Source of the DNA: an uncultured Chloroflexia bacterium
GTDB taxonomy: Bacteria; Chloroflexota; Ktedonobacteria; Ktedonobacterales; Ktedonobacteraceae
Reading direction: 5' to 3'
Length of the DNA: 64,000 nucleotides
Assembly: GCA_963717105.1 (NCBI GenBank)
Contig: CAVQVL010000012.1
Location: 122,577 to 186,576 of the forward strand
Of the stretch, positions 6,299 through 29,986 are shown piece by piece. The position numbers and the translations under genes are program-made. Within the stretch, counting starts at the first letter, position 1; each line of letters opens with the position of its first letter. Below the pieces are notes generated by a model that was given only the letters and a program-made list of their open reading frames with translations, had not been told where the DNA came from and searched no databases.

Positions 6299-6324
6299 CT
6301 CGTCGAGAAGGATGGATTGGTTTG

Positions 6325-7170: not shown

Positions 7171-7177
7171 AAAAATC

Positions 7178-10732: not shown

Positions 10733-10790
10733 CGCGGGCTCATCAACTTGTAGGGGGTAGCAGACGAAATAAGGAAGCGAACGGAAACCC

Positions 10791-13440
10791 ATGAGTATAA
10801 ATGAACGCCAGGAAGTATCGCCGGAACTTAGCGAAACTTATCCACTTGTGGCGTTAAAAAGTATGGTGGTGTTTCCGCGCACACGTACCACGCTCGCAGT
10901 TGCACGAGAGAAATCAGTGCGAGCGATTGAAGAGGGCATGATGCGCCCCGACCGCTTACTCATCGCCGTATCCCAGCGCACCCCCGAACTGGAAGACCCG
11001 GAGCCAGGTGATCTTTATCCTATTGGCGCGCTCGTCGAAATTACCACCGTCCACCGCCAACACGACGGCAGCTTACAGGTCTTACTGAGCGGCTTACAAC
11101 GAGTGGAAATTGAGGAGTTCCAGGACCTGGAACCGTTTATGCATGTCCGCGTGCGCATTCCAGCGGAGCCGCAAGGACGTGGACCACAGGTTGATGCACT
11201 GGTTCGCCACGCCACTAACTTGTTCGAACACTATGCACAACTCAACCGCCGCTACTCGGTCGAGGATATCACCTCCATCGTCGCTATTAAAAATGCTGCC
11301 CGCCTCTCGGATATGCTGGCCGCCCATCTCGTTACCGATGTACAGCAGCAGCAAAACTTGCTGGAGACGTTCGACCCTCTGGAACGTCTGGAAAAAATTT
11401 GCGTCATTATGGGCAACGAAATTGAGATTCTCGAACTCGAATCATCTATTCGCAACCGCGTACGTTCGCAGGTAGACCGTTCACAGAAAGAATTTTACTT
11501 GCGCGAACAATTGCGTGCCATCCAGGAAGAATTAGGGCTGGACACATCCTCAGAGGCAGATGAGCTGCGCGCAAAACTGAATGAGAAAACGCTACCAGTC
11601 GCAGTTTCGACAAAAATACGCAAAGAGATTGACCGCCTGGAAAACACACCGGCACAATCAGCGGAGATAGCCGTGTTGCGTTCATACATCGATTGGGTGC
11701 TGGCTCTTCCGTGGACAGAACGCACCGAGGACCGTTTTGATATTGAACTTACACGCCGCATCCTGGATGAAGACCACTACGGGCTGGAAAATATTAAGGA
11801 GCGCATTATAGACTTTCTGGCGGTGCGCCAGTTACGCCGACAGTTAGCCAATCGAGGTGGACGCAATAGCAGTGAGAGTCAGGGACAGAATTCTCTGCTT
11901 CATTGGCCCTCCTGGTGTTGGTAAAACCTCACTGGGCCGCTCGATTGCGCACGCACTGGGAAGGAAATTCGCCCGTATTTCGCTGGGCGGCGTCCACGAC
12001 GAAGCCGAGATTCGTGGACATCGCCGTACCTACGTCGGTGCCTTGCCCGGACGTATCATTCAATCTATGAAAACTGTTGGCGTGCGTAATCCCGTCTTCT
12101 TGCTTGATGAGATTGACAAACTCTCGGCGGAGTATCACGGCGACCCGGCGGCAGCCCTGCTTGAGGTGCTTGACCCAGAGCAGAATAATAGCTTTACCGA
12201 TCACTATCTGGAAATCCCTTATGACCTATCCGAGGTCTTTTTTATCTGTACGGGCAACGTGAAGTATCAGATACCGCGTGCCCTGGCGGATCGCATGGAT
12301 ATCATTGACCTGCAGGGCTACATGTTTGAAGAAAAAGTCAACATTGGCTTGCGCCATCTCCTGCCAAAAGTGCTGAACGAACATGGCTTGACCGCCGACC
12401 AGTTGAAAATTTCGCAAACCGTCATGCAACACATTGTCAGCGATTACACGAGAGAGGCCGGCGTGCGCAACCTGGAACGCCAACTGGCGACAATTTGCCG
12501 CAAAGCGGCGCGACGCATCATCGAAAAGCCGAAAACGCACCTGCGGCTCACTACACACAGCCTGGAACACTATCTCGGTGCGCCACGTTACAGCACCACT
12601 CCAATCACGCACAATACACAGGTCGGCGTAGCCATGGGATTGGCAGTCACCGAGAACGGCGGTATTCTGCTACCGGTCGAGGTAGCAACGATGCCTGGCA
12701 AAGGCGACTTGCTGGTCACAGGCCAACTGGGCGATATCATGCGTGAGTCAGCGATTGCCGGCCTATCCTATATCCGTTCGCGCACCGACGAACTAGGCAT
12801 TGATATCAATTTCCAGGATGCGACCGACCTGCATATCCACCTGCCGGAGAACGCCATTCCAAAGGATGGCCCATCCGCCGGCATCACCATCACCACCGCC
12901 CTCATTTCGGCACTCACCTATCGCCCCATCCGCGACAACCTCGCTATGACCGGCGAGATTACGTTGCGCGGGCGCGTGCTGGGCATCGGCGGCCTCAAGG
13001 AAAAAGTGCTTGCGGCCCATCAGGCCAACATTTATAACCTGATTGTCCCATTGGAAAATCAGAAGGATATTGCCGAGATTCCGCTAAAAATTAGCAAGAG
13101 CATGCATTTTACCTTCGTAGACACGATGGATCAGGTCGTGCAAGCTGCTTTGCTCGACGCTCCACCAGAAAGTCAAACAGAAAATCAAATGCCTGCAGAC
13201 GAACAAAGACAGCTTGAGCTACCTGAGCCACGTCCATTGCATGTGGACGAGCGGCTCCCACTTACTCGTGACCTACCTGGACGCCGCACAGGCATAGCGG
13301 GAATGAATACTGATGACCAGCTCGACAATGATGTGACCGAACGCAACGAACGCGAACCGGGAACATTCCACATTATTCCTGACGAGCATAATACACACGA
13401 TTCCTATCCCCCTATGCGAGCGCAAGACCCTGAACACTAA
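10791..13440 (+). CDS. lon: Lon protease, reading frame interrupted once (shift between 11848 and ~11885)
   Basis: The Lon N-domain ORF (10791-11924) is followed in another frame by ILCFIGPPGVGKTSLGRSIA (Walker A) and the protease domain PKDGPSAGITITTAL. The second frame is closed by TAG at 11845-11847, so a shift is required. Confidence 0.85.
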
Positions 13441-13813
13441 GCGTCTGCTGGACAATGAACTCGATAACCACGAGGACGTCCAGCCCCATTGTCTGACAGA
13501 TCGATACCGTACTTTTGCACCCTTTGCACGTTGTAAATAAAAGGTGGATTTGCCCATGCTGCCAACTGCGGTCATTGCGATAGCTATCCACTCTGCTGGT
13601 ATTCAAGAAAACGGTAAAATTACCGATGATAATGTGAGCTAGATGCTTCACAAAGACAACCTTTCCATGTATACTACGTATAACATTACGTAAGAAATGT
13701 GACTTCGAGACCAGTATCTGAATACAAAAACTTTCGTGAAGTTTATTAAAAAACGATTGAAAGTACTTCTTTTGTGAAAATGGTCTTGTAGATTTCAGAA
13801 ATGAGGGAATATC

Positions 13814-14506
13814 ATGAGTTGGGATCCCAATCAGCCAAACCAGGGGCAAAACCCCCAGAACCCCAATCAAGGCAGTCAATACGGTGCCGGCTATGGCAGT
13901 GAGTATGGTCAACAACCAATGCAGCCACCACCACCAACTGACCCCTATAGCCAGCAAGGCCCATATGGACAATCCGGGCAACCCGGGCAACCCGGCGGAC
14001 AGCCAGACTATAGTCAATCCGGTCAGCCCGGCTATGGTCAGTCCAGCTATGGCCAACCCGGCTACGGTCAGCAACAGCAATATAGCGGCTACCAGCAAAA
14101 CCCATACGCGACGCCGCCAATGGGTGGTGCTTCCGCGTTTGGCGCAAGCACAATGGGTATGGACCCCAAGACAGCAGCAGGACTAAGCTATCTTGGTATA
14201 TGGATCACAGGTATCATCTTCTTCCTATTGGAGAAGCAGAATCGCTTTGTGCGTTTCCATGCGATGCAGTCCATACTTTTCTTCGGCGGTATCGTAGTAC
14301 TGTCCATCATTCTAGGGTTTGCGATCAACATTACTCCCGGCTTTTTGTCATTAGGGCTTCTTTGCCTCAACTGGATAGTAGGCCTGGCCGGCTTTGTTGG
14401 CTGGATCGTGCTGATGATCAATGCCTTCCAGGGTAAGTACTTCAAATTGCCGGTCATTGGAGATTATGCTGAACGGTACGCGAACCAGAACTCCTTAAAT
14501 TTATAA
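13814..14506 (+). CDS. DUF4870-like small membrane protein with a Q/G/P/Y-rich disordered N-terminus (paralogue 1)
   Basis: Low-complexity N-terminal half (GQPGYGQSSYGQPGYGQQQQY), then GMDPKTAAGLSYLG...EKQNRFVRFHAMQS and C-terminal FQGKYFKLPVIGDYAERY. Confidence 0.7.
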   Translation: MSWDPNQPNQGQNPQNPNQGSQYGAGYGSEYGQQPMQPPPPTDPYSQQGPYGQSGQPGQPGGQPDYSQSGQPGYGQSSYGQPGYGQQQQYSGYQQNPYATPPMGGASAFGASTMGMDPKTAAGLSYLGIWITGIIFFLLEKQNRFVRFHAMQSILFFGGIVVLSIILGFAINITPGFLSLGLLCLNWIVGLAGFVGWIVLMINAFQGKYFKLPVIGDYAERYANQNSLNL

Positions 14507-14525
14507 GCATCGGAGGAAAACAATC

Positions 14526-15137
14526 ATGAGTTGGAATCCTAATCCTGGACAGGACCCAAATCCACAGGGTCAGTACGGCGGCTATAATCCACCACCGGCA
14601 GGCGGGCAGCCTGGGCAGCCTGGGCAGCCTGGTTACCAGTATAACGCTTACAATCAACCCCCAAATGCAGGGCAACCGGGCTATCAGTATAACGCCTACG
14701 GTCAGCCGGGCTACCAGCCACCACCGAGAACCGCCAGCCCGCTTGGGCCGAGTTCTATCGGTATGGACCCCAAGATTGCCGCCGGTCTTGGCTACCTTAT
14801 CGGTATCATTGGCCTCATTTTCTTCTTCATTGAGAAGCAGAATCGTTTCGTAAAGTTTAACTCCTTGCAGGCCATCTTCCTGCACTTTGGCGTTGGAATC
14901 GTGGAAACTATTCTGCTCATTCCGTACTTTATCCTCGTGGTAGCTGCAGCTTCAGGCTCAGGATTTGCGGGTACCCTGGTACTCTTGTTTGCTTGCCTTA
15001 TGGGCCTCCTGGGTATTGCCTGGTTTGTTGGCTGGCTGGTAGCCATGATTTAGGCTTTCCAGGGCAAGTACTTCAAATTCCCCCTTATTGGCGACTGGGC
15101 CGAGAGGATTGTTAATAAATCACCTGGGCTGGTCTAA
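14526..15137 (+). CDS. DUF4870-like membrane protein (paralogue 2) carrying an in-frame TAG at 15051-15053
   Basis: The ORF-track ORF stops at TAG 15053, yet the same frame continues AFQGKYFKFPLIGDWAER to TAA 15135-15137. This matches the C-terminus of paralogue 1, and a long hairpin follows 2 nt later. Confidence 0.65.
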
Positions 15138-15138
15138 A

Positions 15139-15216
15139 TTTGCCGTAGTAAACAAGACATGGGAAGCACCAGTGGCGTGCCACTGGTGCTTCCCATGTCT
15201 TGTTTACTACGGCAAA
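15139..15216. terminator. Perfect 38-bp-stem hairpin (2-nt loop)
   Basis: 15139-15176 is the reverse complement of 15179-15216. Confidence 0.7.
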
Positions 15217-15353
15217 CCCTCTAACTTTTAGTACGCTGACTCGTACATGTTTATAGTGACGAATGCATATTGAAACCTGTGGGTGTAAGAGGATACAATA
15301 CAAAGAACCTCACATCATTAGCGGGTCGCATTCAGGCAGAAAGAGAAACAGCT

Positions 15354-15980
15354 ATGAGCAGCAATTATAATTCAGAAGAAGATGATCAGGGCCAGCAAGG
15401 CGGATATACCGGTTATCGTGGCAATACAGCAAAGCAGCAACGACGTCCGTATAGTTACTCGGCGGAGCAACAGCAAGCGCAAGATTTCGGCTACGGCACC
15501 GGAACGCGTCCGGCAGGACAGCAACAACAACAACAGCAGCAACAACAGTATGGGCAGCGAAGCAAAGGCGCGTATCAACCGCCGCGCAGTGCCGCGAGAG
15601 GAACGTCGCCAGTTGACTCTACCTCAACCGGCTTGAACGCCCGCATGGAGGCACTGCTCAGTTACCTGCTCGGGTGGGTCACCGGCCTGATCTTTTTCGT
15701 CGTCGAACGCAAAAATAAGTATGTGCGCTTCCATGCCATCCAATCGTTTCTCTACTTTGGATCGTTGGCGATTATCTTAGGTATACTCAAGGTTGTAGGT
15801 GGCTTTCTCGGCTCCATTTTCTTGATCGGCTTCGTGCTGGGCTTCATCTTCAATGTTGCCATCTTCCTTGTCGGCTTCATCGTCTTCGTGAGTTGGCTCT
15901 ACCTGATGATACAAGCCTATCGGGGCAAAAAGCCCAAAGTACCGTTCTTCGGTGATTTTGCCGAACGTTTCAGCCGATAA
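15354..15980 (+). CDS. DUF4870-like membrane protein with a poly-Q N-terminus (paralogue 3)
   Basis: ATG 15354 preferred over the TTG at 15270. Q10 run, then EALLSYLLGWVTGLIFFVVERKNKYVRFHAIQS and PFFGDFAERF. Confidence 0.7.
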   Translation: MSSNYNSEEDDQGQQGGYTGYRGNTAKQQRRPYSYSAEQQQAQDFGYGTGTRPAGQQQQQQQQQQYGQRSKGAYQPPRSAARGTSPVDSTSTGLNARMEALLSYLLGWVTGLIFFVVERKNKYVRFHAIQSFLYFGSLAIILGILKVVGGFLGSIFLIGFVLGFIFNVAIFLVGFIVFVSWLYLMIQAYRGKKPKVPFFGDFAERFSR

Positions 15981-16066
15981 CATTTGCCCAGTCAGATAAA
16001 ACGGAAACAGGCATGGCGCGATGCGCCATGCCTGTTTCCGTTTTATCTGACTGGGCAAATGTTATC
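15976..16066. terminator. Perfect 44-bp-stem hairpin (3-nt loop) containing the TAA stop of the upstream gene
   Basis: 15976-16019 is the reverse complement of 16023-16066. Confidence 0.7.
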
Positions 16067-16151
16067 CTGAATTGCCACACACCATCCACTATGCTATACT
16101 TGCCCTCGGATACATAGATATATGTAGAGCGGAAGGGAGAACATACCCATC

Positions 16152-16715
16152 ATGGCTTACGATACAACAAATATGCAGAATCCATTTATTGTCGGGGAAC
16201 GCATCTACCTGCGACCGTTGGAGCCTGCCCAGGATAATCACGCTTACTCCACCTGGATGAACAATGAAGACATTCGCCGCTATTTCTCTATTTACCCCAC
16301 CAGCGACACTCGCGGCAAGGAGCGGCTGGAGCAACTGTACCGCGATGGGCGGCACATTATTTTTGGCGTGGCCCTCAACGAGGATAACACGCTGATTGGT
16401 CTCGTTGGCCTCAAGGATATCAATTATATCAACCAGACGGCGGAATTCTATGTCATTATTGGCGATCCCAAAGGCTGGGGCAAAGGCTACGGCACCGAGG
16501 CCACAAAGCTGATGCTGCGCTATGGTTTTCTGGAACTGAACCTCAACCGCATCCAGACACAGGATATGGAAGACAACATTGGAGGCTGGCGAGCCGATGA
16601 GAAGGCCGGTTTCAAGTACGAGGGAACGCTGCGCGAGGATATCCTGCGTTTCGGCAAATACTCGGACGTGCGTGTCTACAGCATCCTCAGGCGCGAATAT
16701 TTGGAACAACAATAA
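16152..16715 (+). CDS. GNAT-family N-acetyltransferase (RimJ/RimL-like)
   Basis: 187-aa ORF with IIGDPKGWGKGYGTEATKLMLRYGFLELNLNRI, the acetyl-CoA binding region of GNAT enzymes. Confidence 0.8.
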   Translation: MAYDTTNMQNPFIVGERIYLRPLEPAQDNHAYSTWMNNEDIRRYFSIYPTSDTRGKERLEQLYRDGRHIIFGVALNEDNTLIGLVGLKDINYINQTAEFYVIIGDPKGWGKGYGTEATKLMLRYGFLELNLNRIQTQDMEDNIGGWRADEKAGFKYEGTLREDILRFGKYSDVRVYSILRREYLEQQ

Positions 16716-16716
16716 T

Positions 16717-17822
16717 ATGACGATTACCGTTCAAGAAATTACTGACCGCGAGCAGTGGGACACGTTTCTCACGAGCCAGCCGCGGGGCCACTTGCTGCAA
16801 TCATACGAGTGGGGCGAGCTGAATAAATATCTCGGCGGGCGCATCTACCGGCTCGGCGCACTGGACAACGGACGCATGGTGGGCGCGATGATGCTCACGG
16901 TCGCACAGGTTCCATTACCCTCGTCGGTGCCGGTGCGTTTCGAGTGGCTATATTGCACTCGCGGCCCCACCGTCGAGCAGCCGGATTCCCCGGCACTCGC
17001 CGCGCTGATCGAACACGCCCATGCGATTGCGCGTAAAGAACATGCCGTGGTGTTGCGCCTGGAACCAAATATCGCCGACGATGACCCCAGATATGGACGC
17101 CTGGATTGCCGCCTATCGCGCCCTGGGCTTCCATATAAACCCTATCGCAGTCCACGGTCGCCGCAGCTGGGTGCTGGATATTCGCCCAGGCGCGGAACAA
17201 TTGCTCGCTGACTTCAAGATGACGTGGCGGCAGAACGTGCGCAGTGCCGAACGTAAGAGCGTGATCATCCGCGAAGTCGAGAGCGAGGCCGATTTCGACG
17301 CCTACTACAATCTGCTCAAAATCACCAGCGAGCGCGACGCTTTTTTTATACACGACAAAGACTATCACAAAGAGATTTTGCGCGAGTTCAAAAGTAAGGG
17401 TGATGCCGTTCTCTACCTCGCCGAACACGAGGGCGAGGCCATCGCCGCCAAAATGCTGATTCGCTTTGGCGACTGGTGCTGGGACATGTTCGGAGCCACC
17501 TCCAACAATAAACGCAACCTGAAACCAGCCTACCTGTTGCAGTATCGCTGCATCCAGTGGGCGCAAGCGCGGGGATGCAGCTACTTCGATTTCCGCACCA
17601 TTCCCGAAATACTGGAGCCGGGCGAAGAGATGTGGGGTGTCTACGAATACAAAAAGGGCTTCGGCGGCTTCTCGCGCCTGAACATCCCCACGCAAGATTA
17701 CATCTATCGCCCGCTCATCTACAATGCCTGGCGTACGCTTCGTCGAAATGCGCCGCGCCCGCCGCCATACCGAACGCAAAAAAATCGAACTGGAACGTAT
17801 AGCGCGTGGCAAAAATCAATAA
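16717..17822 (+). CDS. FemAB-family peptidoglycan peptide-bridge transferase (copy 1), frame broken near 17090 and probably again near 17740
   Basis: MTITVQEITDREQWDTFL...SYEWGELN (frame 1) continues as DMDAWIAAYRALGF...FGATSNNKRNLKPAYLLQY...GVYEYKKGFGG (frame 2). A third frame gives EMRRARRHTERKKIELERIARGKNQ ending at TAA 17820-17822, directly before a hairpin. Confidence 0.7.
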
Positions 17823-17825
17823 CCC

Positions 17826-17851
17826 GTAGGAGCCGGTGAACCGGCTCCTAC
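17826..17851. terminator. 11-bp-stem hairpin GTAGGAGCCGG-TGAA-CCGGCTCCTAC
   Basis: Seen directly. It sits 4 nt after the proposed stop of FemAB copy 1. Confidence 0.5.
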
Positions 17852-19502: not shown

Positions 19503-20373
19503 ATGTCAACGTTCAATGATCCACCGTCCGATCTCACAAAAAGCACTTATGTGCTGGATGCCAGTGACCCGGCTGAAATTATTCGCCTGGTGTACCAGGA
19601 CCAACTTCTGACACAACATCTGGGTGGTTTGTTTCCCGAACAGCCTGATCTTCTCTCATGTTCATGATCTGCTTGACATTGCCTGTGGCTCCGGCAATTG
19701 GGCACTGCAAGTGGCACAGGCCTATCCCCACATTGAGGTGACCGGCATAGACCTCAACACCCAGATGATTCTGTATGCCCGCGCCCACGCCTTGCTTGAA
19801 GGATTGCCCAATGCCCAATTCCTGTTGATGGATGCGCTCAAACCGCTCGACTTTCCCGATCACTCCTTCGATCTGGTCAACGCCCGTCTCCTGTTGGCCT
19901 TCATGCCGCCAGCGGCATGGCCCCGGTTGTTGCAAGAATGTGTCAGAATTACTCGTCCAGGCGGTATTATTCGCCTGACAGAGTCGGAATATGGCCTGAG
20001 CAATAGTCCGGCCTGCGAACACATTGGGGAGCTTTGTACACAGGCGTTGAAAGTTGCCGGGCAAAGCTTTTCGCCTGATGGACGGCATGTTGGCATTACA
20101 CCGATGCTCGGACAATTTTTGCGCGAAGCTGGTTGTCGAAACATCAGGCATTTCGCCTCCGCCCTCGATTATTCGGCGGGAACGGCGGTGCATGACATTA
20201 TGTACCAGAACACTGTAAATACACTCCAGTCAGTACAGCCATTTCTCATCAGGTGTGGACTCACAACGCAGGAAGCGATCACCGCCCTCTACCAGCAAGT
20301 ATTGCAAGAGATGCGTGCCGCTGGTTTTTGTGCTATCGAGTTTTTTTTGACGGTCTGGGGTGAACGCCCATAG
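19503..20373 (+). CDS. Class I SAM-dependent methyltransferase, frame broken between 19624 and 19667
   Basis: N-terminal ORF (MSTFNDPPSDL...LTQHLGG) runs into the second-frame ORF with LLDIACGSGNWA (motif I) and RPGGIIRL. Confidence 0.75.
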
Positions 20374-20485: not shown

Positions 20486-21100
20486 ATGAAAAAATATGTA
20501 TTGATTGCCGATCCCCGCGCAGCGTTTCGCCAGGAACTACGCGCTATGTTTACCCGACCGCCAGAGGAAGAACAGATACTTGAAGCGGCAACATACCAGG
20601 AGTTGCTTGATCAGTTGGCAATGCACACCTTTGACTTTGTCTTTGTCAACCAGATGTTTGTCACGGATATCACGATACTTCCACGCGGCAAATTCATGAT
20701 ACTGGCTCCTCAACCAGATATGCTGATGGTATTTGCCGCCCGTACTCAGGGTGCATGTGCCTGTTTTCAGGAAAATGCCTCTGTTTCCTTGATACGGCAG
20801 GTAGCGGAGCTTCCCGTGGGAATATTTCTCACTGACCCGGTCGTTTCCGCTCACCTTGAGGACTACCTGGCTCATCACTTGCTTTTATCCATTGCTGATG
20901 AAGAACTGACCACCCGTGAACGTGAAATTTTTCGTCTTTTGTGGGGCGGGCAGAGTAAACAGAACATCGCGAAGCGGCTCCACATTTCCGAAAATACGGT
21001 GAAGGCGCATGTCAGAAGCATTTACAGCAAACTCAATTTGAATCGCTATCGCCTGAAAATACTTTCGATCCTCCATGATCCTGACACGAAAAACCAGTAA
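20486..21100 (+). CDS. LuxR-family transcription regulator with a degenerate (pseudo-)receiver domain
   Basis: C-terminal HTH LTTREREIFRLLWGGQSKQNIAKRLHISENTVKAHVRSIYSKL. The receiver-like N-terminus has N where the phospho-acceptor Asp is expected (FDFVFVNQ). Confidence 0.8.
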   Translation: MKKYVLIADPRAAFRQELRAMFTRPPEEEQILEAATYQELLDQLAMHTFDFVFVNQMFVTDITILPRGKFMILAPQPDMLMVFAARTQGACACFQENASVSLIRQVAELPVGIFLTDPVVSAHLEDYLAHHLLLSIADEELTTREREIFRLLWGGQSKQNIAKRLHISENTVKAHVRSIYSKLNLNRYRLKILSILHDPDTKNQ

Positions 21101-21268
21101 GTGGAAGAGAATATGCCGTCCTGACAGCAAAGAGCTTGTGGAAGAGTAGCAGAGTAATCATTTGGGCGATTGTCTTGCACAAAAAAACCAGGTATACTCT
21201 TTCTGGTTGATACAAGTACCCAAATGCTTTTTCTGCTTTCTAGAGTGACTGTCGGGAGGATAGCGAGC

Positions 21269-21853
21269 ATGTTGCCCTTTGCTGTCATTGCTATCCGTTT
21301 ATTTCTACGCCTTTTTGTTGGAGTGATATTGCTGAGCGTCAGTGTGAGCAAACTCGCTCATCTCCGCCAGTTCCAGCAAGGCATCCAGAATTACCAGGTC
21401 GTACCATCTCCACTGGCATCGAAGAGAGCATTCTCGATGGCACTGACTATCGCTATTCCTCTGGCTGAACTGCTGGCGGGTCTCGGATTGATTACTGGCT
21501 TCTGGCTGTTTCCTGCTGCTCTGCTGGCCGTAGCACTGTTTGTTGTGTTCTGTATTGCCATCACGATCAATCTCGTGCGCGGTCGCCGCGACCTCTCCTG
21601 TCATTGCGGAGGGGCCATCGGCAATCACCTGATTTCCTGGTGGCTCGTTGGACGCAATGGCTTGCTCATTGTGTGCCTGCTCGTCCTGCTGGTCACGCCA
21701 CCTGATACGTTCACTGTCGCCTCGTTTGTGCAGAGTCCGTCCCTGTTGAATCAGTTCTTCGTCAGTACGATCGTCCCTGTAGCCGTCCTGGTAGGAGCCG
21801 TCATCGCCGTCATTGCGCTGTTCAACGCTGCACAAGTTTTGTGGCGTTCGTGA
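21269..21853 (+). CDS. MauE/DoxX-family redox-associated membrane protein
   Basis: Start at ATG 21269 behind GGGAGGA. Four hydrophobic helices, N-terminal LRLFVGVILLSVSVSKLAHL and the CHCGG motif typical of MauE-like proteins. Confidence 0.65.
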   Translation: MLPFAVIAIRLFLRLFVGVILLSVSVSKLAHLRQFQQGIQNYQVVPSPLASKRAFSMALTIAIPLAELLAGLGLITGFWLFPAALLAVALFVVFCIAITINLVRGRRDLSCHCGGAIGNHLISWWLVGRNGLLIVCLLVLLVTPPDTFTVASFVQSPSLLNQFFVSTIVPVAVLVGAVIAVIALFNAAQVLWRS

Positions 21854-21882
21854 GCAAGCAGCCTTGAAAGAAGGAGTGAAGC

Positions 21883-22470
21883 ATGTTGACACTCTGGATT
21901 GTCGTCATTGTCCTCGGGGTACTCGAACTTTTTGAAACGGTGTTGCTGGTGTTGCTGCTGCGGGCGTTAGGAGAAATGCGACAACAGGGCATTAGCCCAT
22001 CAGCTAGCACTGTACACCATCAGGATATGGGCGGACTGGCTGTGGGTGAAAAGGCTCCTTCGTTTGTTGCCACGAATCAGGAAGGGAAGCTTGTCAGCCT
22101 TGAGGATTTTGAGGGGCAACGACGAATTCTCGCATTTATTTCACCTGGATGCCCCGCCTGTGCCAGCGCAATCAGTATTTTTAATGCGATACTGAAAGAC
22201 GGAGGAGATTTCACCATCTTAGTCATAGGGGGTCCAGATCGTGAGCTAAACCGTTCATATGCAGCGAAGCACAGGCTACAGGTACCTCTCTTGACGCCTC
22301 AATCAAATTTCGATCAGGAAGAGTATCTCGTACCAATGATACCATTTGTCTTTGTACTTGATGAAACAGGTATCATCCGTGCAAGAGGCCCTGTCATTGA
22401 TCGTCCACACATGCACAACTTACTGGCAACAATAACAGTACCAGCTACTCGTGAACACGCCCGTAGCTGA
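21883..22470 (+). CDS. Membrane-anchored TlpA/MauD-like thioredoxin-fold thiol-disulfide oxidoreductase
   Basis: N-terminal TM helix, then GEKAPSF...LAFISPGCPACASA (CxxC). Confidence 0.75.
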   Translation: MLTLWIVVIVLGVLELFETVLLVLLLRALGEMRQQGISPSASTVHHQDMGGLAVGEKAPSFVATNQEGKLVSLEDFEGQRRILAFISPGCPACASAISIFNAILKDGGDFTILVIGGPDRELNRSYAAKHRLQVPLLTPQSNFDQEEYLVPMIPFVFVLDETGIIRARGPVIDRPHMHNLLATITVPATREHARS

Positions 22471-22769
22471 ACGCTTCAAAGAAGAAAGAACGAGAGGTCA
22501 CGAAGAATGGAGAAAAAAATGACAAACAAACTGGATGGCGTTGGACAAGGATTGCAACCGGTGAATTCACGCCGCACCATCCTCAAATGGATCGGGCAAG
22601 TCGTGAGTGGCGCTTCATTGGCGGCCATTGCTATCGGTCTTGCGGACCCTGAGAATGCATTTGCAAAGCCTGACTGTTATCAGTGTCCTACAGGTTGTGT
22701 GATTGTCTATTGTAGTAGTGGCAATCCACCTTGCAATCCGAATGCCCGTTACTATTTAACCACGTATTA

Positions 22770-23838
22770 CTGACATCGGCAGAGGGAAGTAAAGTGTGAT
22801 ACACTAGGAGGTATGGGAGCACCAAGAAAAGCCGATTGGCGAGAAGAACGACGAAAACGAGCGTGGCAGTTGAAAGAAGAAGGCTGGCACCAACAAGATA
22901 TTGCCAAAGCATTGGGAGTGAGCGAGGGAGCCGTGAGCCAGTGGATGAAACGGGGGCGAGCAGGAGGAGTCGAAGCCCTCAAAGCGCATCCATCCCCGGG
23001 AGTGAGGCCAAAGCTGAGTGCCGAGCAGAAAGCGCAACTGCCCACATTGTTAGTGAAAGGAGCCGAAGCCTACGGGTTCCGTGGGGACGTCTGGACAGCC
23101 AGCCGTGTGGCGGAGGTCATTGACCGCACGTTTGGCGTGCGCTATCACCGCGACCATGTGGGGCGACTGTTGCGTGAAGCCGGCTGGAGTCGACAGAAAC
23201 CGGTGGAACGAGCCAGCCAGCGCAACGAAGAAGCCATCAAAGAGTGGTATGAAGAACGGTGGCCCGCCATAAAAAAAAAGCCGAACAGGAGCAAGCGACC
23301 ATCCTCTGGGTAGACGAAGCAGGCTTTTATCTGTTACCGATGGCCGTGCGTACCTGGGCACCAGCAGGACAGACGCCACTCCTGCGTGTCAAACTGACGC
23401 GGGATCATCTCTCGGCAATAAGTGGCATCACCCTGGATGGGAAACTCTTTATGCAAGTGCGTTCCGCGTCGTATGATGCTGAAGCGATCGTCGGCTTCCT
23501 TCGGGTTCTTTTACGCAAGCTTCCTGGCAAGATCGTCCTCATCTGGGATGGTGCGCCTATTCACCGCGCTGGCGAGATCAAGGCATTTCTCAAGCGCGGT
23601 GCAGCCAAGCGCTTGCATTTGGAGCAATTGCCCGGCTATGCGCCCGATCTCAATCCCGACGAGGGCATCTGGAATTATCTCAAGCGCGTCGAGTTGGGCA
23701 ATGTCTGCTGTTGCGACCTGGCTCACTTGAAGACGCAGCTTATTCGAGCCAGAGAACGCTTGCGCCACAAAACCGACATCATTACGAGTTGCTCTCGCCA
23801 ATGTGGCTACGCAGTTTAGCTCTTTATCACGAGGTCAG
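22770..23838 (+). mobile_element. IS630/Tc1-mariner family insertion sequence flanked by a TA target duplication
   Basis: Ends CTGACATCGG... and ...CGAGGTCAG form imperfect inverted repeats (about 19 of 29 positions match). TA at 22768-22769 and 23839-23840. Two-ORF DDE transposase inside. Confidence 0.8.
22813..23819 (+). CDS. IS630-family transposase, two overlapping frames joined at an A9 run (23271-23279), consistent with -1 frameshifting
   Basis: ORF1 has an HTH region (WHQQDIAKALGVSEGAVSQW). ORF2 has DDE signatures (ILWVDEAGF, LIWDGAPIH, LNPDEGIW). ORF2 is in the -1 frame relative to ORF1. Confidence 0.8.
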
Positions 23839-23967
23839 TATTATCTTGGCGGTTGTATACAACCTGGACAGCAATGTCCTATTAAATGTGCCAAAGACTA
23901 TTGCGGTACTGGATGCACTTCTTTTGAGTGTTGTGCTTGAATGCCGCTAATATCATTTTGTGATTTT

Positions 23968-24020
23968 TCTAAAGTATATATGATCTGAATACAAACACAT
24001 TCGATCATATGTACTTTAGA
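23968..24020. terminator. 18-bp-stem hairpin (1 mismatch, 17-nt loop) downstream of the reconstructed Cys-rich ORF
   Basis: TCTAAAGTATATATGATC (23968-23985) versus GATCATATGTACTTTAGA (24003-24020). Confidence 0.45.
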
Positions 24021-24042
24021 AGAGGAGATCATAAGAGCATCT

Positions 24043-25353
24043 ATGGACAACGAGCAACCTTCTACGCATCCCAACACTGGAGCTGGGCAGCCAAAAGATG
24101 CAAGATATATTCCCGGTGAGCAGTCATCTGCATCTTCCCCATTGCCACTGACATATCCAGAGCCATCCATCCCTACCCCCCCACGTAGGAAAGCAGGGTT
24201 GCTCTTCAACATTGGTATCGCGATGCTCCTGGTCATCGTCATCGTGGTTGCGCTCTCTCCTGTGCGTGATGCTATCCTCAATCATTTCATTGGCCCCACA
24301 CCTACGCCAACCGCTCTTATCACTCTTGGCGACAACCTCTTCTACATTCAAGCCATACCGAAAGGAAGTATCTTTATTGATGAGCGGCAAATCATGCATC
24401 TTCCGGTAATCGGGAAAGACCATCCCTTGCAACTTTCACCAGGCAAGCATCAAATTCGCTGGGAAGCCGCACCGTTCAAGCCACTCTCGTGTATCGTCTC
24501 GGTGCCATCATCACCGACGAACGACCAATGCCCATATGAGTCAGTCACGCCACTCACCCCTGCGGAAAATGTTCGTCTCGTGACTTTTGACCCCTCGATA
24601 GCCAATCTGCCCACGACACAACGGGCAACTCTGGTGCATCAAATCCAGCTCGCGCTCAATATGCTGCAATCTACTACGATCGTCCAGCCCGGCGAAGCGT
24701 ATCTCTCGACCTCATCTGCTGGTTTACCGGTGATGGTGACAACCACGCAACAGTTGAAAGCCACTCTCAGTTTTCATCTTGACACTGATCCGGCTGCGAA
24801 CAGGTCATGCGAAGAATATAATGAGACCTGCACTTCACCTGAGGGGCAGAACTGTGTATTATTATGTGTCCTCCCAGATACCACCTTTGTCCCCAATTCA
24901 CCGTCATCCCATTCCCAGCCCCGGGCCACATTAACCTGGGAGATTGTAGGCTTGTTCTATCCCACCTGGACCTATACCACCACAGGCGGGCAGGTCGTGG
25001 CAATAAATCAACCCGATGCATTACCTGATCGGGTCGTCGGAGAAGACCATAGCGTTCTCGCACATACTACGTGGGATAGTACAGGCTGGCATGCTATCAT
25101 CATCACACCAAATAGCGATTGGCACGCTACTTCAACGACAGATGGGTCTCCTACGAACTTTGGCTTTGCTGATCCTACTTGTGGCTCGCTGAATGACTTG
25201 ATTAATGGCACAACTACTTATTTAATTACACAGAGAGACGGGACAGTCAGCTGGAAGTTGAAAGCAGGCACAAATCATGCTGCCGGTTGTCTGGGTGTCG
25301 TTACCCCAGAACACAATATGCCTTTTGTTTATTTCTCTAGCGTTTTGGAGTGA
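24043..25353 (+). CDS. Hypothetical single-pass membrane protein (Pro-rich cytoplasmic N-terminus, ~370-aa extracytoplasmic domain)
   Basis: 436-aa ORF with RBS GAGGAG upstream and TM helix LLFNIGIAMLLVIVIVVAL. No recognisable motif. Confidence 0.5.
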   Translation: MDNEQPSTHPNTGAGQPKDARYIPGEQSSASSPLPLTYPEPSIPTPPRRKAGLLFNIGIAMLLVIVIVVALSPVRDAILNHFIGPTPTPTALITLGDNLFYIQAIPKGSIFIDERQIMHLPVIGKDHPLQLSPGKHQIRWEAAPFKPLSCIVSVPSSPTNDQCPYESVTPLTPAENVRLVTFDPSIANLPTTQRATLVHQIQLALNMLQSTTIVQPGEAYLSTSSAGLPVMVTTTQQLKATLSFHLDTDPAANRSCEEYNETCTSPEGQNCVLLCVLPDTTFVPNSPSSHSQPRATLTWEIVGLFYPTWTYTTTGGQVVAINQPDALPDRVVGEDHSVLAHTTWDSTGWHAIIITPNSDWHATSTTDGSPTNFGFADPTCGSLNDLINGTTTYLITQRDGTVSWKLKAGTNHAAGCLGVVTPEHNMPFVYFSSVLE

Positions 25354-25615
25354 TGCTGGCGGCAAACGAGGCGGCCCATCGATATTTTCCTGGTGCCAGT
25401 TGCCAATGCCAGTGAACAGGCAATTGCGCAACAGATAGCGAACAAGGCAGAAGTCTAATCAGATGCTTGAGAACCGTTGGCATCTCGTGATATTATCACG
25501 ATCGTTGACATATATTGTATATATTCTTTCTATCACTGGCAGTACTCCCTTTTTTCTTTATTTCTTTCTCGCCGAAACACCTTGCGCTGATACAAACCAT
25601 GAAAGGCTACGTTAC

Positions 25616-28380
25616 ATGCTTCAATATGTTTTGCTCATGCTTCGTCGCCAACGAGGACGCAGTGTCCTGACCGGTGGCGGCTTTCTGCTTGCTGCCTGTG
25701 CTGTGATTTTATTAAGTGCCACCACCCAGACAACGGTCATCCAGGCCAGACAGATTATCAATAACAACTGGCGACCGAGCTATGATCTGGTTGTTCTTCC
25801 ATCACAGGCAAAGCTTCCTTCCGGGCAAACGGTTCCTGCCGATTTTCTGGAAGGATACAACGGGGGGATTAGCGTCCAGCAATATGAGCAGATCAAGTCT
25901 TTGCCAGATATCGCCGTTGCCGCGCCCATTGCCTTTCTCGGCTATGCCCTGTCACCTGTACCAGCACTCAACTTTGCTCCTCAGGCTCTGGCTCCAGGAT
26001 ACTATCGAGAAGATTTGACATTGACAGCTTTTAATGGGCATCAGCATATCATCGAGCGCCATGAAAGCCTTATCTACGGCATATTTGCGACCTGTGATAT
26101 TACCAGTGAAAGTGGCGCACGAGAAGCACTTATGCAGCAAAATGTTGAGGTAGGTTTCTGCGGTGTCGGGAGTACTGCGCCAACAGAATTTCCTTCGCTG
26201 GATGATGGAACCTTTCTGTTCGCGGCCATTGATCCTGCTGAAGAAGAGCAACTTCTGCATCTCAATCCCCAGGCCATCGAGGGGCGCATGCTCACCGAGC
26301 AAGATGGACTGACTTTAGCCAGAAAATTAACCGGAAATCTTGGGGATGAAATCTGACTATACGGTTCCAATGGTAATCAACCGTTCGCTGCCTGGCAATA
26401 TCGCGCTCAACGCGTCGTTGACACGCCTGGGTGGCCCGCTTGACCCGCAACAGGTGCTGGATAGTGGCGGCTATAGCTATTTAGTCCATCTTCCTCATCA
26501 GCAGACGCTGTTTCAAGGAAGCGTGCCACTGCTCCAAAATAACCCACAAGCCTTTTCCAGTGCTGACGTTAACATGGAATGGTCAAACGTGGCAGACTAA
26601 GAAGTATAGCTCCACTATAGGTGGGGGAAACAATCTGCTCTTTCTCTATACGCCTTCCGGTTTGAGCTACCAGTCAGTCGCAGCACCGGATGGACAGGTA
26701 GGATACACGCTTGTACCGAGCCAATCACAAAGTCCTGCATCCGTATTACAGTACGTTGCAGCTTGTTCCCCAGGAGAATACCAATCTTCCTTCCGACAAA
26801 CAGGGAGCAGAGGTCTATTTTCGTGATCTGCACGCCATGCACACGCTGACGGATACCTCTGACTCATCCAATAGTAGCGTCGAGTACTTTACGCATATCA
26901 TCGGGCAATTCGACGGGACAACATTATCAGCGCAGTTCAATAACGTGCTGAACTGGTTGCCGGAGAATACCTATGCTTCTCCACCTGCTGTGTTGCGCTA
27001 TGATGCTCAAGGACATCCTGTCACACCCACAACGCTGCTTCCCACCACCAATCCAGCCGGGTATCTCCTGCAACCACCGCTGGCCCTCACGACGTTGAAA
27101 GCAGCACAACAGATTGTGGGCAATCGTCTCATCAGTGTTATTCGCGTGCGTCTCAATGGCAATGTCACTCCTGATGAAGCGGGCTGGAAGCGCGTCTCAC
27201 AGGTCGCGCAAGAGATCTATCAAAAGCACAGGACTGCAGGTCTTTGTTACGCTGGGCTCATCTCCCGCACCTACGCTGGTCTATATTCCCGGCCTCAAGA
27301 AAGGCCAGGACGGCTCGACAAAAGATATTCCCCCGGTGGGTTGGGTGCAGGAACGCTGGATTGCGATTGGAGCAGGTATCGTCTATCTCAACCAGCTGGG
27401 AGAGACGCAACTGCTTGCTGCTGGGAGCGGTGTTGCTGGTCTGTCTGGGCTATTTAGCGGTGACCATGAGTTCGCTCGTCTCGGCCCAACGCCGCGAATT
27501 AGCGGTGCTGAGCGCATTGGGCTGGCGACCCTGGCACTCGGCAGGCATGTTCCTGGCGCAAGCCCTCGCCCTCTCATTGTGTGGAGGTGTGGTCGGCATT
27601 GGACTGGCATTACTGCTGGTCGCGCTGATCGGAGCCAGTCCCCGTGGCAAATCGTCGCCTGGACCATGCCAGGTGTGCTGGGGTTGGCCTTGCTCAGCGC
27701 CTTGTACCCCCTCTGGCAAATCTGGCGTATTCAGCCCGCCGAGGTCCTGCGAGCAGGCACGACGGTGGCGAAAGAAAGTACCACCTCGCGCCTCAATCGC
27801 TGGAACGCCTCGTTCTGGTCACGTTTGCCAGCCGTGGGCGGCATGGCCTTGCGCAATTTGACGCGCTCCCGCTTGCGAGCGGTGATCGCCATTGGCAGTC
27901 TGTTTCTCTCAGCAGTCCTCTTGACGGTGATGGTAGATGGCATTCTGGCGTTCCGGCAAACCTTGCAAGGGACGTTGCTCGGCGATTATGTCTTATTGCA
28001 AACGGCGGTGCCACAGATTGCGGGGGCGGTCTTTGCTGTCCTCTTGACCTTCCTGAGTGTGGCTGACCTGTTGTTATTGCAGGTGCGCGAACGCCAGAAG
28101 GAAATCGGCCTCTTACAGGCGGTGGGCTGGCGAGCGAAGATAGTGCAGCGCTTGTTTGTGCAGGAAGGCTTGATGCTGGCGGTGGTGGGTGCAGTGCCAG
28201 GGGTGCTGGTCGCGTTAGGTGTACTTGATGGCACGACATGCCGCACAGGGCGCCATACCCGCGCCACTGGTGGGACTAGGAGCGGTCGTCCTGATGCTCA
28301 TCGTGGCGTGGCTGGCGACGATTTCGGCAGTACGAGCGGTGAACCGCTTGCCCATGATGGATGTCTTGCGAGGGGAATGA
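25616..28380 (+). pseudogene. FtsX/MacB-type ABC transporter permease with a large extracytoplasmic domain, fragmented over at least 7 frame changes
   Basis: Colinear pieces in alternating frames: 25616-26356, 26340-26600, 26560-26826, 26711-27220, 27220-27420, 27420-27640, 27640-28200, 28200-28380. Two FtsX-like blocks (RRELAVLSALGWRPW; RQKEIGLLQAVGWRAKIVQRLF) and the typical ending NRLPMMDVLRGE. Confidence 0.7.
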
Positions 28381-28384
28381 TAGA

Positions 28385-29198
28385 ATGAAGGATAACATGG
28401 GACGTCGCACCAGGAAGGGGCCAAAGCGCGTGAGACTCAACAGCGAACACGATGAATCACTTGAACCATCTGAACAGCCGAAACAAGCAGAAGAACATGA
28501 GCAAGATGAGCAATCGGAACACGTTACTGATGAGCGTGAAACCATCTTGCGGGTGGAACACCTGGAGAAAGCATATGCCATTCCCGGCGGGCAATTGCAG
28601 GTGCTTGCATGATGTGAATTTAGCAGTGCAGCAAGGGGAGTTTGTGGCGATTACCGGGCCATCGGGGTCGGGCAAGACGACGTTGCTGGCGTTGTTGGGG
28701 GCGTTGGACACACCCGATAGCGGAGAAATCTGGCTGCACGATCAAGCGGTTCACAAACTGCGTGGCGTGGCTGCCGCCGATTTTCGCCGCGAGCAGGTGG
28801 GCTTTGTCTTCCAACTCTTCTACCTCTTGCCCAACCTGACGGCACTGGAAAACGTGATGGCCCCGTTGTTGCCCTATCGGCGCAAACTGGATTTTGATTT
28901 GAAGGAGCGGGCGAAAGAGTTGTTGGAGCGCGTCGGACTCGCGGAACGTATGGGCCATGCCCCGGCACGACTCTCTGGCGGCGAGCAGCAGCGCGTTGCC
29001 ATCGCTCGCTCCCTCATCAATCGTCCAAAGGTCTTGTTGGCGGACGAGCCGACGGGCAATCTGGACCCGCACACCGGCGTCGAGGTGCTGGATGTCTTGC
29101 GCGAGTTGCAACGGGCCGGCAGCCAGACGCTGATTATGGTCACCACGATCCCCAGGTGGCCGCTCTGGCCGATCGGCGCATTCACCTGGAACAGTTGA
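28385..29198 (+). pseudogene. MacB/LolD-type ABC transporter ATPase with an acidic N-terminal tail; frame broken near 28600 and near 29140; 3' end uncertain
   Basis: ILRVEHLEKAY (frame A), then GPSGSGKTT, LSGGEQQRVAIARSL and LLADEPTGNLD (frame B). After TLIMVT the expected HDPQVAALADRRIHL is found in a third frame. Confidence 0.7.
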
Positions 29199-29222
29199 GC
29201 ACAGGTGAGAGGAACTGGACAG

Positions 29223-29272
29223 AATGCATGAGCAGAGACAGTTGCCGTGGCAACTGTCTCTGCTCATGCATT
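29223..29272. terminator. Perfect 24-bp-stem hairpin (2-nt loop) with imperfect outer extension; overlaps the trmD stop
   Basis: 29223-29246 is the reverse complement of 29249-29272. It lies between convergent genes. Confidence 0.65.
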
Positions 29273-29986
29273 ATTCTCCAGTTCCTCCAATAGCTTCTTA
29301 TCCAGCTTGCCGCTCAGATCCAGTTTGGCGAAGAGGTCGGGGCGGCGTTGGCGTGTGCGGCGCAGCGATTCCTTGCGCCGCCAACGAGCGATCTGTTCAT
29401 GGTGGCCGGAGAGCAATATGTCGGGAACGGGCCAGCCACGAAACTGCGGGGGGCGCGTATAGTGGGGATATTCGAGTAGACCACTGCTATGCGATTCCTC
29501 TTGAATGGACTCATCTGTCACGACGCCGGGAATGAGACGAGCTACAGCATCCACGACGATCATAGCGGCCAGTTCGCCGCCGGTGAGGACGTAATCGCCA
29601 ATGGAAAGTTCGTCGGTGACAAGGTGTTCGATGACGCGCTCGTCTACGCCCTCGTAATGTCCACATAGCAGGGTGAGGCGCGGCTGTTGCGCAAGTTCGT
29701 GGGCAATCTCCTGGTTGAATAGTCGGCCCTGCGGCGTGAGCAAGATAATCGGGCCACCCGCATAGACAGACTCGACGGCGGCGAAAATGGGGTCGGGTTT
29801 CATGACCATGCCCGCGCCGCCGCCGTAGGGATAATCATCAACAATATGGTGTTTGTCGGTAGTGGCGTCGCGAATATTGTGCAGAGTGATACTGAGCAAG
29901 CCCCGCTCCTGTGCGCGTTTGAGAATGCTCTCGGTCAATGGCCCCTGGAACATACCGGGGAATAATGTGAAAATGTCGCAATGCAT
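29264..29986 (-). CDS. trmD: tRNA (guanine37-N1)-methyltransferase
   Basis: [17 protein letters not shown]...[17 protein letters not shown]...[11 protein letters not shown]. Start at the second ATG (29986), behind GGAAGGTGGGA. Confidence 0.9.

Follow-up and report, generated by a model that had tools for sequence, protein, structure and literature searches.

One of the closest described settings for the locus reported here is the methylamine dehydrogenase (mau) gene cluster, in which the membrane protein MauE and MauD, a membrane-anchored CxxC thioredoxin, are encoded beside MauA, a twin-arginine protein with 12 cysteines and six disulfides. A comparable trio lies on the + strand at positions 20486-29293 of a 64,000-nucleotide stretch of contig CAVQVL010000012.1 (assembly GCA_963717105.1, from an uncultured Chloroflexia bacterium of the Ktedonobacteraceae), here called the window. 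There, the gene for a LuxR-type regulator is followed by genes for a MauE-family protein, a MauD-like thioredoxin-fold protein, a cysteine-rich peptide split by an insertion sequence (IS), a 436-aa membrane protein, a double-FtsX permease and an ATP-binding cassette (ABC) ATPase. We consider it somewhat probable that these genes represent a lineage-specific cassette for a secreted, disulfide-knotted peptide that is exported by twin-arginine translocation (Tat), oxidised by a dedicated redox pair, bacteriocin-like in function and served by downstream genes for self-protection or release.

The cassette departs from mau clusters in several respects. Pfam scans of the open reading frames (ORFs) of the cluster in the window and of the L019 cassette proteins gave no match to MauA, MauB or MauG, in agreement with the first-pass annotation, made from the letters alone, which had noted the absence of the large subunit and mauG. 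The thioredoxin-fold protein stays below the MauD cutoff, and the cassette adds a LuxR gene together with FtsX/ABC genes or a gene of the 436-aa family. The mature peptide, which is hypervariable, has only about half the length of MauA, and homology between the two was rejected for lack of any MauA-like Pfam or NCBIfam match.

MauE has no known natural client besides methylamine dehydrogenase. MauE proteins from two phyla replace DsbB in Escherichia coli through a periplasmic CXC motif, oxidase activity having been shown only for those of Caldithrix and Desulfatibacillum; fusions to thioredoxin-fold domains account for about 8% of MauE proteins, and MauA is present in only 10% of MauE-containing species (bioRxiv 10.64898/2026.03.05.709764). 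The same preprint proposes MauE as a generalist disulfide-forming protein and, only in 2026, as the second commonest disulfide-generating enzyme of bacteria. By combining oxidase, thioredoxin partner and a substrate with 8-14 cysteines in one compact, genetically linked set, the cassette offers a client system in which the MauE/MauD pathway could be probed, along with the direction in which it runs and how specific its partners are.

Laterosporulin is a defensin-like, disulfide-rich bacteriocin. The actifensins also belong to this type and combine a conserved cysteine scaffold with an otherwise degenerate sequence (PMC6989792). The cassette peptides resemble such bacteriocins in being small, apparently secreted and highly degenerate outside a conserved cysteine scaffold, whereas defensin-like bacteriocins have three disulfides, are cationic and come with no dedicated oxidase pair, and we detected no similarity in sequence or fold. 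Among glycocins, sublancin 168 is made from the operon sunA-sunT-bdbA-sunS-bdbB, which encodes its own thiol-disulfide oxidoreductases for two disulfides (PMC6391423). The cassette likewise encodes a redox pair, but where sublancin relies on the thioredoxin-like BdbA, the DsbB-like BdbB and a leader-cleaving ABC exporter, the cassette has a MauE-type oxidase, a Tat signal, no glycosyltransferase and a peptide with 4-7 potential disulfides; its candidate immunity proteins are FtsX/ABC, lipoproteins or the 436-aa family, as against SunI. The lactococcin 972 cluster consists of a bacteriocin structural gene and a putative ABC immunity transporter (PMC4055356), a likeness that extends to the unmodified, secreted nature of the peptide, and the cassette ATPase is of the MacB/LolD/FtsE type.

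In Streptomyces, three candidate families of peptides made on the ribosome and modified after translation (RiPPs), found with decRiPPter in 2020, have mauE, and in one family also mauD, beside precursors with at least 8 cysteines (PMC7794033). Both they and our loci place MauE, with or without MauD, by a small cysteine-rich precursor outside a mau cluster, and the precursors of both open with C-x-Q-C-x3-4-C-x4-C; the Streptomyces precursors differ in their length of 57-66 aa, in having no twin-arginine signal and in coming from another phylum, and neither set has been characterised. Homology was rejected, since these precursors scored a non-significant 8-10 bits against our family profile. Pfam detected no leader-dependent modifying enzyme in the cluster, whose enzymes are the redox pair and, in 4 loci, a class I methyltransferase; the N-terminal region of the peptide reads as a secretion signal, and the cassette is not a RiPP cluster in the strict sense. 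The first-pass annotation had called the locus undescribed. This holds for the peptide, which matches no known family, but the general idea has precedents in the MauE oxidase work of 2026 and in the Streptomyces mauE loci of 2020, and the locus appears to be a non-homologous variant of a known, uncharacterised combination of mauE with a cysteine-rich precursor, to which it adds two unannotated families.

Conservation of the cassette across loci

The window was annotated by ORF listing with Pfam and NCBIfam scans, which recovered every gene listed in the first-pass annotation in the same order and on the + strand. Homologues of two proteins, the peptide and the 436-aa protein, then led us to loci that we scored by tblastn and precomputed Pfam calls. 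This gave 14 independent peptide loci, all of them in Ktedonobacteraceae/'Chloroflexia' metagenome-assembled genomes (MAGs) or soil-type metagenomes, and the cassette has been found so far only in Ktedonobacteraceae/Chloroflexia records. A thioredoxin gene accompanied the peptide gene in 14 of 14 loci, MauE in 12 of the 12 with upstream DNA and the LuxR gene in 8 of the 8 that extend far enough. The first-pass annotation had proposed that a MauE/MauD-type pair was recruited to a small secreted cysteine-rich Tat peptide outside a mau cluster, and co-occurrence of the gene families in other genomes had been set beforehand as its test. The co-occurrence held across the 14 independent loci and, together with a peptide that belongs to no known family, supports the proposal.

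Gene order was methyltransferase-LuxR-MauE-thioredoxin-peptide-436-aa gene in L015 and L017, the same without the methyltransferase in L004 and in L014, which carries three copies of the 436-aa gene, and (MauE-)thioredoxin-peptide-436-aa gene in L001, L002 and L025/26. FtsX genes are found in L019 (methyltransferase-LuxR-MauE-thioredoxin-peptide-FtsX of 938 aa-ABC-ABC), L018 (thioredoxin-peptide-FtsX), L022 (LuxR-MauE-peptide-FtsX-thioredoxin-peptide-FtsX-ABC), L023/24 (LuxR-MauE-thioredoxin-peptide-two lipoproteins-FtsX, with a divergent ATPase gene upstream) and L027 (MauE-thioredoxin-ABC-FtsX-ABC-peptide-lipoprotein), while L020/21 reaches the contig end after (MauE-)thioredoxin-peptide. 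With the window included, 8 loci have the 436-aa gene downstream and 6 have FtsX. An ABC ATPase is seen in 5 of the FtsX loci (L018 ends first), and only the window has both modules. The single locus from regulator to ATPase described in the first-pass annotation is therefore present as such in the window, but elsewhere the 436-aa family and FtsX/ABC are alternative downstream modules.

We also weighed whether any dedicated system exists, as MauE and the thioredoxin could be a general oxidative-folding pair that happens to lie beside unrelated secreted cysteine proteins and a transporter. The proposal of MauE as a generalist and the occurrence of the 436-aa family without MauE would both suit such a pair. 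However, the order LuxR-MauE-thioredoxin-peptide is kept despite flanks that differ between loci, which indicates a cassette beyond shared synteny; the peptide gene was never found without the thioredoxin gene (14/14); and GCA_963822755.1 holds the complete cassette twice, both times with separate MauE and thioredoxin genes, which argues that the redox pair is dedicated and not housekeeping. A general pair is, in our estimate, extremely unlikely.

The peptide gene and its interruption in the window

The 5' part of the peptide gene in the window (22507-22769, + strand; an 88-aa ORF) encodes the twin-arginine signal SRRTILKW and the first five cysteines, with the start used in the orthologue corresponding to the ATG at 22519, and the 3' part (23841-23940, + strand) encodes the last seven cysteines and the stop codon. 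Between them lies an IS630-family element of 1069 bp (22770-23838, + strand), present as a single copy within the window, with helix-turn-helix and DDE_3 ORFs (Pfam matches HTH_33, HTH_32, HTH_29 and DDE_3), termini that form imperfect inverted repeats (TACTGACaTCG / TACTGACcTCG) and a flanking TA target duplication (22768-9 and 23839-40). Excising the element with one TA joins 22769 to 23841 in frame and yields a 120-aa precursor with SRRTILKW and 12 cysteines in its mature part. The intact orthologue P0003, from a public sequencing run (115 aa, 87% identical), spans the junction uninterrupted (...YYLTSYYYLGGCIQPGQ...), and the 3' part also matches both P0003 and P0002. Disruption of the precursor by an IS, as the first-pass annotation had described, is solidly established, and the peptide structural gene is inactivated in the window strain by the IS630 insertion. 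A pure assembly error as the origin of the element was ruled out by the target duplication and the intact orthologue junction.

The two transposase ORFs of the element (22813-23313 and 23259-23819) overlap at a run of nine A residues (23271-23279), which may mark a site of programmed frameshifting or else an indel, either inactivating or in error.

Directly 3' of the peptide gene is a hairpin with a 17-bp arm (23969-24019, + strand), and the intergenic region folds with -35.6 kcal/mol. Of the 11 loci examined, 10 have a strong hairpin at this position, followed in L019 by a T-run, and the hairpin sequences are unrelated between loci. It is likely an attenuating terminator or a stabiliser of the transcript. 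Such an arrangement is common where the structural gene of a small secreted peptide is transcribed in abundance.

Sequence and structure of the peptide family

Searching 1.84 billion cluster representatives with a family profile returned 62 peptide representatives, nearly all 95-165 aa long and matching the full profile length; complete precursors from the collected loci have 104-139 aa. The family was not recognised by existing resources: the rebuilt peptide had no NCBIfam match, a Pfam scan of 17 members gave nothing beyond a marginal TAT_signal match in 2 of them, and the family profile had 0 matches at E <= 10 against all PDB sequences. The homology to a known, unrelated family that would have counted against the first-pass proposal was accordingly not encountered in Pfam, NCBIfam or the PDB.

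All 59 complete members carry the RR pair, mostly within S-R-R-x-F-[FL]-K, and the signal consensus extends to S-R-R-x-F-[FL]-K-W-x-G-Q-..-A-G-A-S-L-A-..-G-L-G-..-N-P-.-N-A-L-A-A. In the window the signal (SRRTILKW...GASLAAIAIGLADPENAFA) combines the twin-arginine motif with a weakly hydrophobic h-region and an A-x-A site. The number of cysteines after the signal was even in 59 of 59 complete members (8 in 10 members, 10 in 26, 12 in 22 and 14 in 1), as expected if every cysteine is disulfide-bonded and cysteines are gained or lost in pairs. This evenness is the strongest single result on the family. Cysteine makes up 15-20% of the mature domain, and the rest is poorly conserved: mean pairwise identity was 63% in the signal, 35% in the mature domain and 24% in the mature domain without the shared cysteines. 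Between the window and its closest relative, L002, the nonsynonymous divergence (dN) of the mature domain was 0.141, compared with 0.009 for the signal and 0.055 for the thioredoxin gene beside it. An AlphaFold2 model built on a 14-sequence alignment (predicted local distance difference test, pLDDT, of 75-81 for the mature domain) contains three long beta strands, and Foldseek found nothing in the PDB at E <= 1e-3.

A cysteine content this high could also belong to a metal or cofactor binder, whether metallothionein-like or an Fe-S or Cu carrier, that is exported folded by Tat while the redox pair tends its thiols. Tat signals are typical of cofactor-containing proteins, and TlpA-type proteins are often reductants in the assembly of metal sites. 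Against such a role, the cysteine count varies between 8, 10, 12 and 14 and nonetheless stays even in the 59 complete members, the residues between cysteines are hypervariable, and neither conserved His/Met ligands nor CxxCxxC cluster motifs were seen in the mature domains; MauE has now been shown to be an oxidase-type DsbB analogue, and the peptide model is all-beta. We hold a metal binder to be very unlikely.

Redox pair and regulator

The MauE-family protein of the window (21269-21853, + strand, in an ORF that opens at 21170) scored 81.1 bits against PF07291 (cutoff 27) over profile positions 5-126 of 128, and the L019 orthologue scored 76 bits. Its start at ATG 21269 is preceded by GGGAGG and agrees with the 195-aa orthologues. 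The CXC active-site motif that MauE proteins carry in the loop before the last transmembrane helix reads DLSCHCGG in the window and takes the form C-H-C-[GAE]-G in every orthologue inspected (window, L004, L015, L019 and L022), a variant in which X is His followed by [GAE]-G, as against the common C-G/A-C-F-G. Residues of the window protein in ...VSKLAH... and ...PLAELLAG... look like the conserved Lys and Glu. By homology, we presume the protein to be a DsbB-like disulfide-generating oxidase.

The next gene (21883-22470, + strand) encodes a MauD/TlpA-like thioredoxin-fold protein of the AhpC-TSA/Redoxin type with a hydrophobic N-terminal membrane anchor (MLTLWIVVIVLGVLELFETVLLVLLL) and the motif CPAC, which is C[PS][AV]C in orthologues. 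Its top NCBIfam model was MauD (TIGR02661), at 55 bits and so below the equivalog cutoff of 188.6, in a nearly full-length alignment (18-184 against 16-178 of 189). By these scores the protein is MauD-like without being a MauD equivalog. It is presumed to act as a DsbA-like carrier, or possibly as an isomerase.

Upstream of the pair, the LuxR/NarL-type regulator (20486-21100, + strand) has a GerE helix-turn-helix domain (PF00196, E 1e-15). Aligned with NarL, the column of the phospho-acceptor D59 holds Asn in the window and T, H, H, H, Y and H in six orthologues, and in all seven the D13/D14 acidic pocket is degenerate. Part of the receiver domain is deleted. As judged from this alignment, the receiver is dead, which bears out the pseudo-receiver named in the first-pass annotation. 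A class I S-adenosylmethionine-dependent methyltransferase (19624-20373, + strand; Pfam Methyltransf_25/11/31, with UbiE/COQ5-like matches) is encoded before the regulator. Orthologues with 57-77% identity lie directly 5' of the LuxR gene in L015, L017 and L019 and are absent from that place in L004, L014 and L022. With the window included, 4 of the 8 loci in which the regulator gene is present have the methyltransferase directly 5' of it. It may be a part of the cassette, acting in peptide methylation or quinone metabolism, or merely syntenic.

A regulator gene in 8 of the 8 loci that reach it would also be expected if the peptide were an extracellular pheromone, sensed through the 436-aa protein or through FtsX/ABC in the manner of Bce-type systems and feeding back on the regulator. 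The large extracytoplasmic domains of these membrane partners would suit a sensor, and variable mature regions behind a conserved signal would be consistent with specificity groups. However, the cassette has no conserved histidine kinase or other transducer, the receiver of the regulator is non-functional, the cytoplasmic tail of the 436-aa protein is short, and mature domains of ~55-80 aa with 4-7 disulfides would be far larger than known bacterial pheromones. A pheromone role is distinctly unlikely.

Alternative downstream modules

The 436-aa single-pass membrane protein (ORF 24043-25353, + strand; to 25455 with its displaced C-terminus) had no Pfam or NCBIfam match, in keeping with its description in the first-pass annotation as a protein of unknown function. 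It belongs to a Ktedonobacteraceae-specific family of 49 homologues, none with a Pfam domain on record. In each, a short cytoplasmic tail leads into a single transmembrane helix, and a Pro/Thr linker joins this to an ectodomain with at least 7 conserved cysteines. An AlphaFold2 model of the 436-aa protein (pLDDT 82, predicted template modelling score 0.77) gave no fold match in the PDB at E <= 1e-3 with Foldseek. Some 65-90 of its N-terminal residues resemble transthyretin-like beta-sandwiches at weak E-values, and the sequence of this N-terminal region looks PEGA-like. Small cysteine-rich ORFs were sought beside homologues that stand alone, with none convincing, and an ABC ATPase near the lone homologue in L016 proved unrelated to the FtsX system of the cassette.

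In two genomes, genes of the 436-aa family and the same 193-aa LuxR paralogue adjoin a gene for a beta-propeller-like repeat protein with about seven 'IEHWNG(t/k)xW' units that ends in ...LIESCCS (L013 2021-3106 and L014 11937-13238) and has no significant Pfam match.

The second module consists of a double-FtsX permease and an ATPase. In the window, the permease gene (25616-28388, + strand; about 925 aa with a large extracytoplasmic domain) was delimited by its FtsX Pfam match and by tblastn with the 938-aa L019 orthologue. Orthologues of 885-938 aa start with an N-terminal helix and comprise, besides two FtsX domains, an ectodomain of about 570 aa, and PF02687 matches twice in the intact L019 permease. 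The permease scored below every curated NCBIfam subfamily cutoff, the best being the ADOP duplicated permease (46 bits against 622). The ATPase (28452-~29293, + strand; ABC_tran, E 6e-36) is of the MacB/LolD/FtsE type and 68-76% identical to the ATPases of L019, L022, L023 and L027; its best NCBIfam models were LolD, FtsE and MacB, and also L_ocin_972_ABC, all under their cutoffs. MacB (with enterotoxin STII), BceAB and YknXYZ are FtsX-type (type VII) ABC systems that deal with peptides on the outside of the membrane. The cassette permease differs from these in its length of about 900-940 aa, its two FtsX domains and its ectodomain of about 570 aa; Pfam detected no MacB_PCD in the 938-aa L019 permease, and no scanned cassette protein matched a MacA-type adaptor family. 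The label 'MacB-type' that the first-pass annotation gave to the ABC exporter therefore fits the ATPase alone, as the permease contains a pair of FtsX domains and no MacB periplasmic core domain could be detected in it. Self-protection or release is also a more likely task of the ABC system than export, since passage of the peptide through the membrane should already be provided by its twin-arginine signal.

FtsX/ABC genes might have been chance neighbours, as L004, L014 and L015 are without them, but this was overturned by the metagenome loci L018, L019, L022, L023 and L027: in L018, L019, L022 (twice) and L023/24 FtsX comes after the peptide gene, and in L027 it is part of the same cluster. 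The two peptides of L022 (10 and 8 cysteines) and its two permeases have diverged, and each peptide gene is followed by its own FtsX paralogue. Small lipoproteins of 149-168 aa with a lipobox (LLAGC/LVSC) and two conserved cysteines (L023 10634-11576, L024 1353-2382 and L027 7498-8001) are encoded between peptide and FtsX in L023/24 and directly after the peptide in L027. They had no Pfam or NCBIfam match and are candidate LanI-like immunity proteins. The peptide-FtsX pairing in L022, the interposed lipoproteins and 436-aa paralogues, and the orphan 436-aa genes point to self-protection or release and, through this, to a bacteriocin-like function.

Some FtsX loci have further peculiarities. 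The first ATPase after FtsX in L019 (6961-8898, 645 aa) has an unusual architecture, in which it is joined to a transmembrane segment and a WD40 beta-propeller of seven blades, and is followed by a second, ordinary ATPase (8946-9719). L022 contains a tandem duplication (4113-16210) that reads peptide-FtsX and then thioredoxin-peptide-FtsX-ABC, and a 710-aa ABC_membrane-type exporter is encoded just 5' of its LuxR gene.

The same set of genes could instead serve a morphogenetic or surface-active protein for aerial growth or spore coats of filamentous, sporulating Ktedonobacteria, comparable to fungal hydrophobins or to SapB and chaplins of Streptomyces, with the regulator and ABC genes paralleling ramR and ramAB. 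As in hydrophobins, the peptides would be small, secreted, roughly neutral, Tyr/Gly/Pro-rich and disulfide-locked, and are otherwise variable; the family is confined to Ktedonobacteraceae/Chloroflexia records; and the regulator is an atypical NarL-type protein that, without a phospho-acceptor, resembles the developmental regulators WhiI and BldM. However, the cysteine spacing departs from the hydrophobin pattern, no link to developmental genes is seen at the locus, and the one-to-one pairing of peptide and FtsX, the lipoproteins, the multiple cassettes per genome and the ready loss of the peptide in this strain fit toxin and immunity better. We judge a morphogen unlikely.

Proposed pathway for a secreted disulfide-rich peptide

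Under the preferred reading of a bacteriocin-like cassette, the precursor, with S-R-R-x-F-[FL]-K, an h-region of low hydrophobicity and A-x-A, would be translocated by Tat, and signal peptidase would free a mature domain of ~55-80 aa. Its 8-14 cysteines would then be oxidised outside the cytoplasm by the dedicated pair, in which, by homology, the C-H-C motif of MauE may act as a DsbB-like, quinone-linked oxidase and the anchored CxxC protein as a DsbA-like carrier, possibly an isomerase. A regulator independent of phosphorylation would control the operon, and the hairpin may let the peptide transcript exceed those of the downstream genes. Finally, the 436-aa family, or lipoproteins with the ~900-aa double-FtsX permease and its ATPase, would protect the producer or release the peptide.

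Several points weigh against this reading. Gene content, homologies, synteny across loci, the properties of the peptide family and the IS insertion are observed, but Tat use, redox direction, immunity and antimicrobial activity are all inferred, the last two purely from locus architecture and precedents. The TAT_signal model PF10518 matched 2 of 17 members with a best E of 0.04, and no NCBIfam model matched the rebuilt peptide; TAT_signal models are very short. One metagenomic copy of the peptide (L019) has 11 cysteines. The mature domain evolves faster than its neighbours at a dN/dS (omega) of 0.29, a value that leaves positive selection unsupported, and mature peptides are rich in Tyr, Gly, Pro and Ser and, from their sequences, roughly neutral, unlike most defensin-like bacteriocins, which are cationic. 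TlpA/ResA-type proteins are usually reductants. Furthermore, an earlier study, as cited in the 2026 preprint, proposed MauE to be a reductase (bioRxiv 10.64898/2026.03.05.709764), and together these two points make the oxidising direction of electron flow in the redox pair less certain. The 436-aa family also occurs alone, with no MauE, thioredoxin or peptide gene within 10 kb, at 11 or more loci (at least L003, L005-L013 and L016), which makes its tie to the peptide non-exclusive.

A more far-reaching version of the proposal, which we put forward tentatively and regard as possible though doubtful, is that the family forms a new class of Tat-exported antimicrobials or toxins with 4-7 disulfides and a new all-beta fold, matured by MauE/MauD as their first natural dedicated substrate apart from methylamine dehydrogenase, and countered by two new kinds of self-protection, the 436-aa family and FtsX permeases matched one-to-one to their peptides. 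In any case, the present data define two unannotated protein families, one made up of about 60 clusters of peptides and the other of 49 or more membrane proteins. Ktedonobacteria have been studied for their potential to yield new natural products (PMC6497799), and if the peptides are truly antimicrobial they would provide very stable, ribosomally encoded scaffolds with naturally hypervariable loops.

Frameshifts and other features of the window

The regulator, MauE and thioredoxin genes are intact and match their orthologues over the full length, whereas eight indels fall within about 4 kb downstream of the peptide gene, far denser than in the rest of the window and outside long homopolymers. 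Compared by tblastn with the intact 938-aa L019 orthologue, the permease gene gave matching segments in frames 2, 3, 1, 2, 3 and 1, which implies at least five frameshifts and agrees with the heavily frameshifted exporter of the first-pass annotation, and the ATPase gene changes frame once near 29144. The conserved C-terminus of the 436-aa protein is also destroyed, a feature that the earlier annotation had not mentioned: two compensating frameshifts and a stop lie at about 25330-25400, and the displaced C-terminal sequence (YRFGVLLAAN..AH..FP..ADA.EQ.IAQ) is still encoded.

The first-pass annotation had suggested that the locus is decaying in this strain. This is firm for the IS insertion. 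For the frameshifts it is no more than probable, since other parts of the window contain split genes as well: those for sigma-70 (46296-47560), a T2SSE ATPase (48836-50010) and FemAB (16579-17839) each run through two or three frames, and the sigma-70 gene, beside dnaG, has region 1.2 in one ORF and regions 2-4 in another. Either a background of assembly indel errors or a genome with many pseudogenes would give this pattern, and the frameshift 'decay' may in part be assembly error. In long-read-style MAGs (MFD, GCA_9638...), frameshift-split peptide genes, thioredoxin genes and extra 436-aa copies were found as well (L004 9401-9792, L014 5803-9845 and L015 8080-9414). These probably reflect assembly errors, so that split ORFs of the family are not automatically pseudogenes.

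Farther along the window, an AT-rich block (42789-43822, GC 0.39) contains 26 perfect DnaA-box nonamers (TTATCCACA) on both strands, where about 0.5 would be expected in the whole window. The boxes, some of them arranged in tandem repeats of 126 bp and 63 bp, lie directly upstream of the dnaG primase gene (44032-45654), where the GC skew also makes a local turn, and the block is a candidate chromosomal origin or DnaA-titration region.

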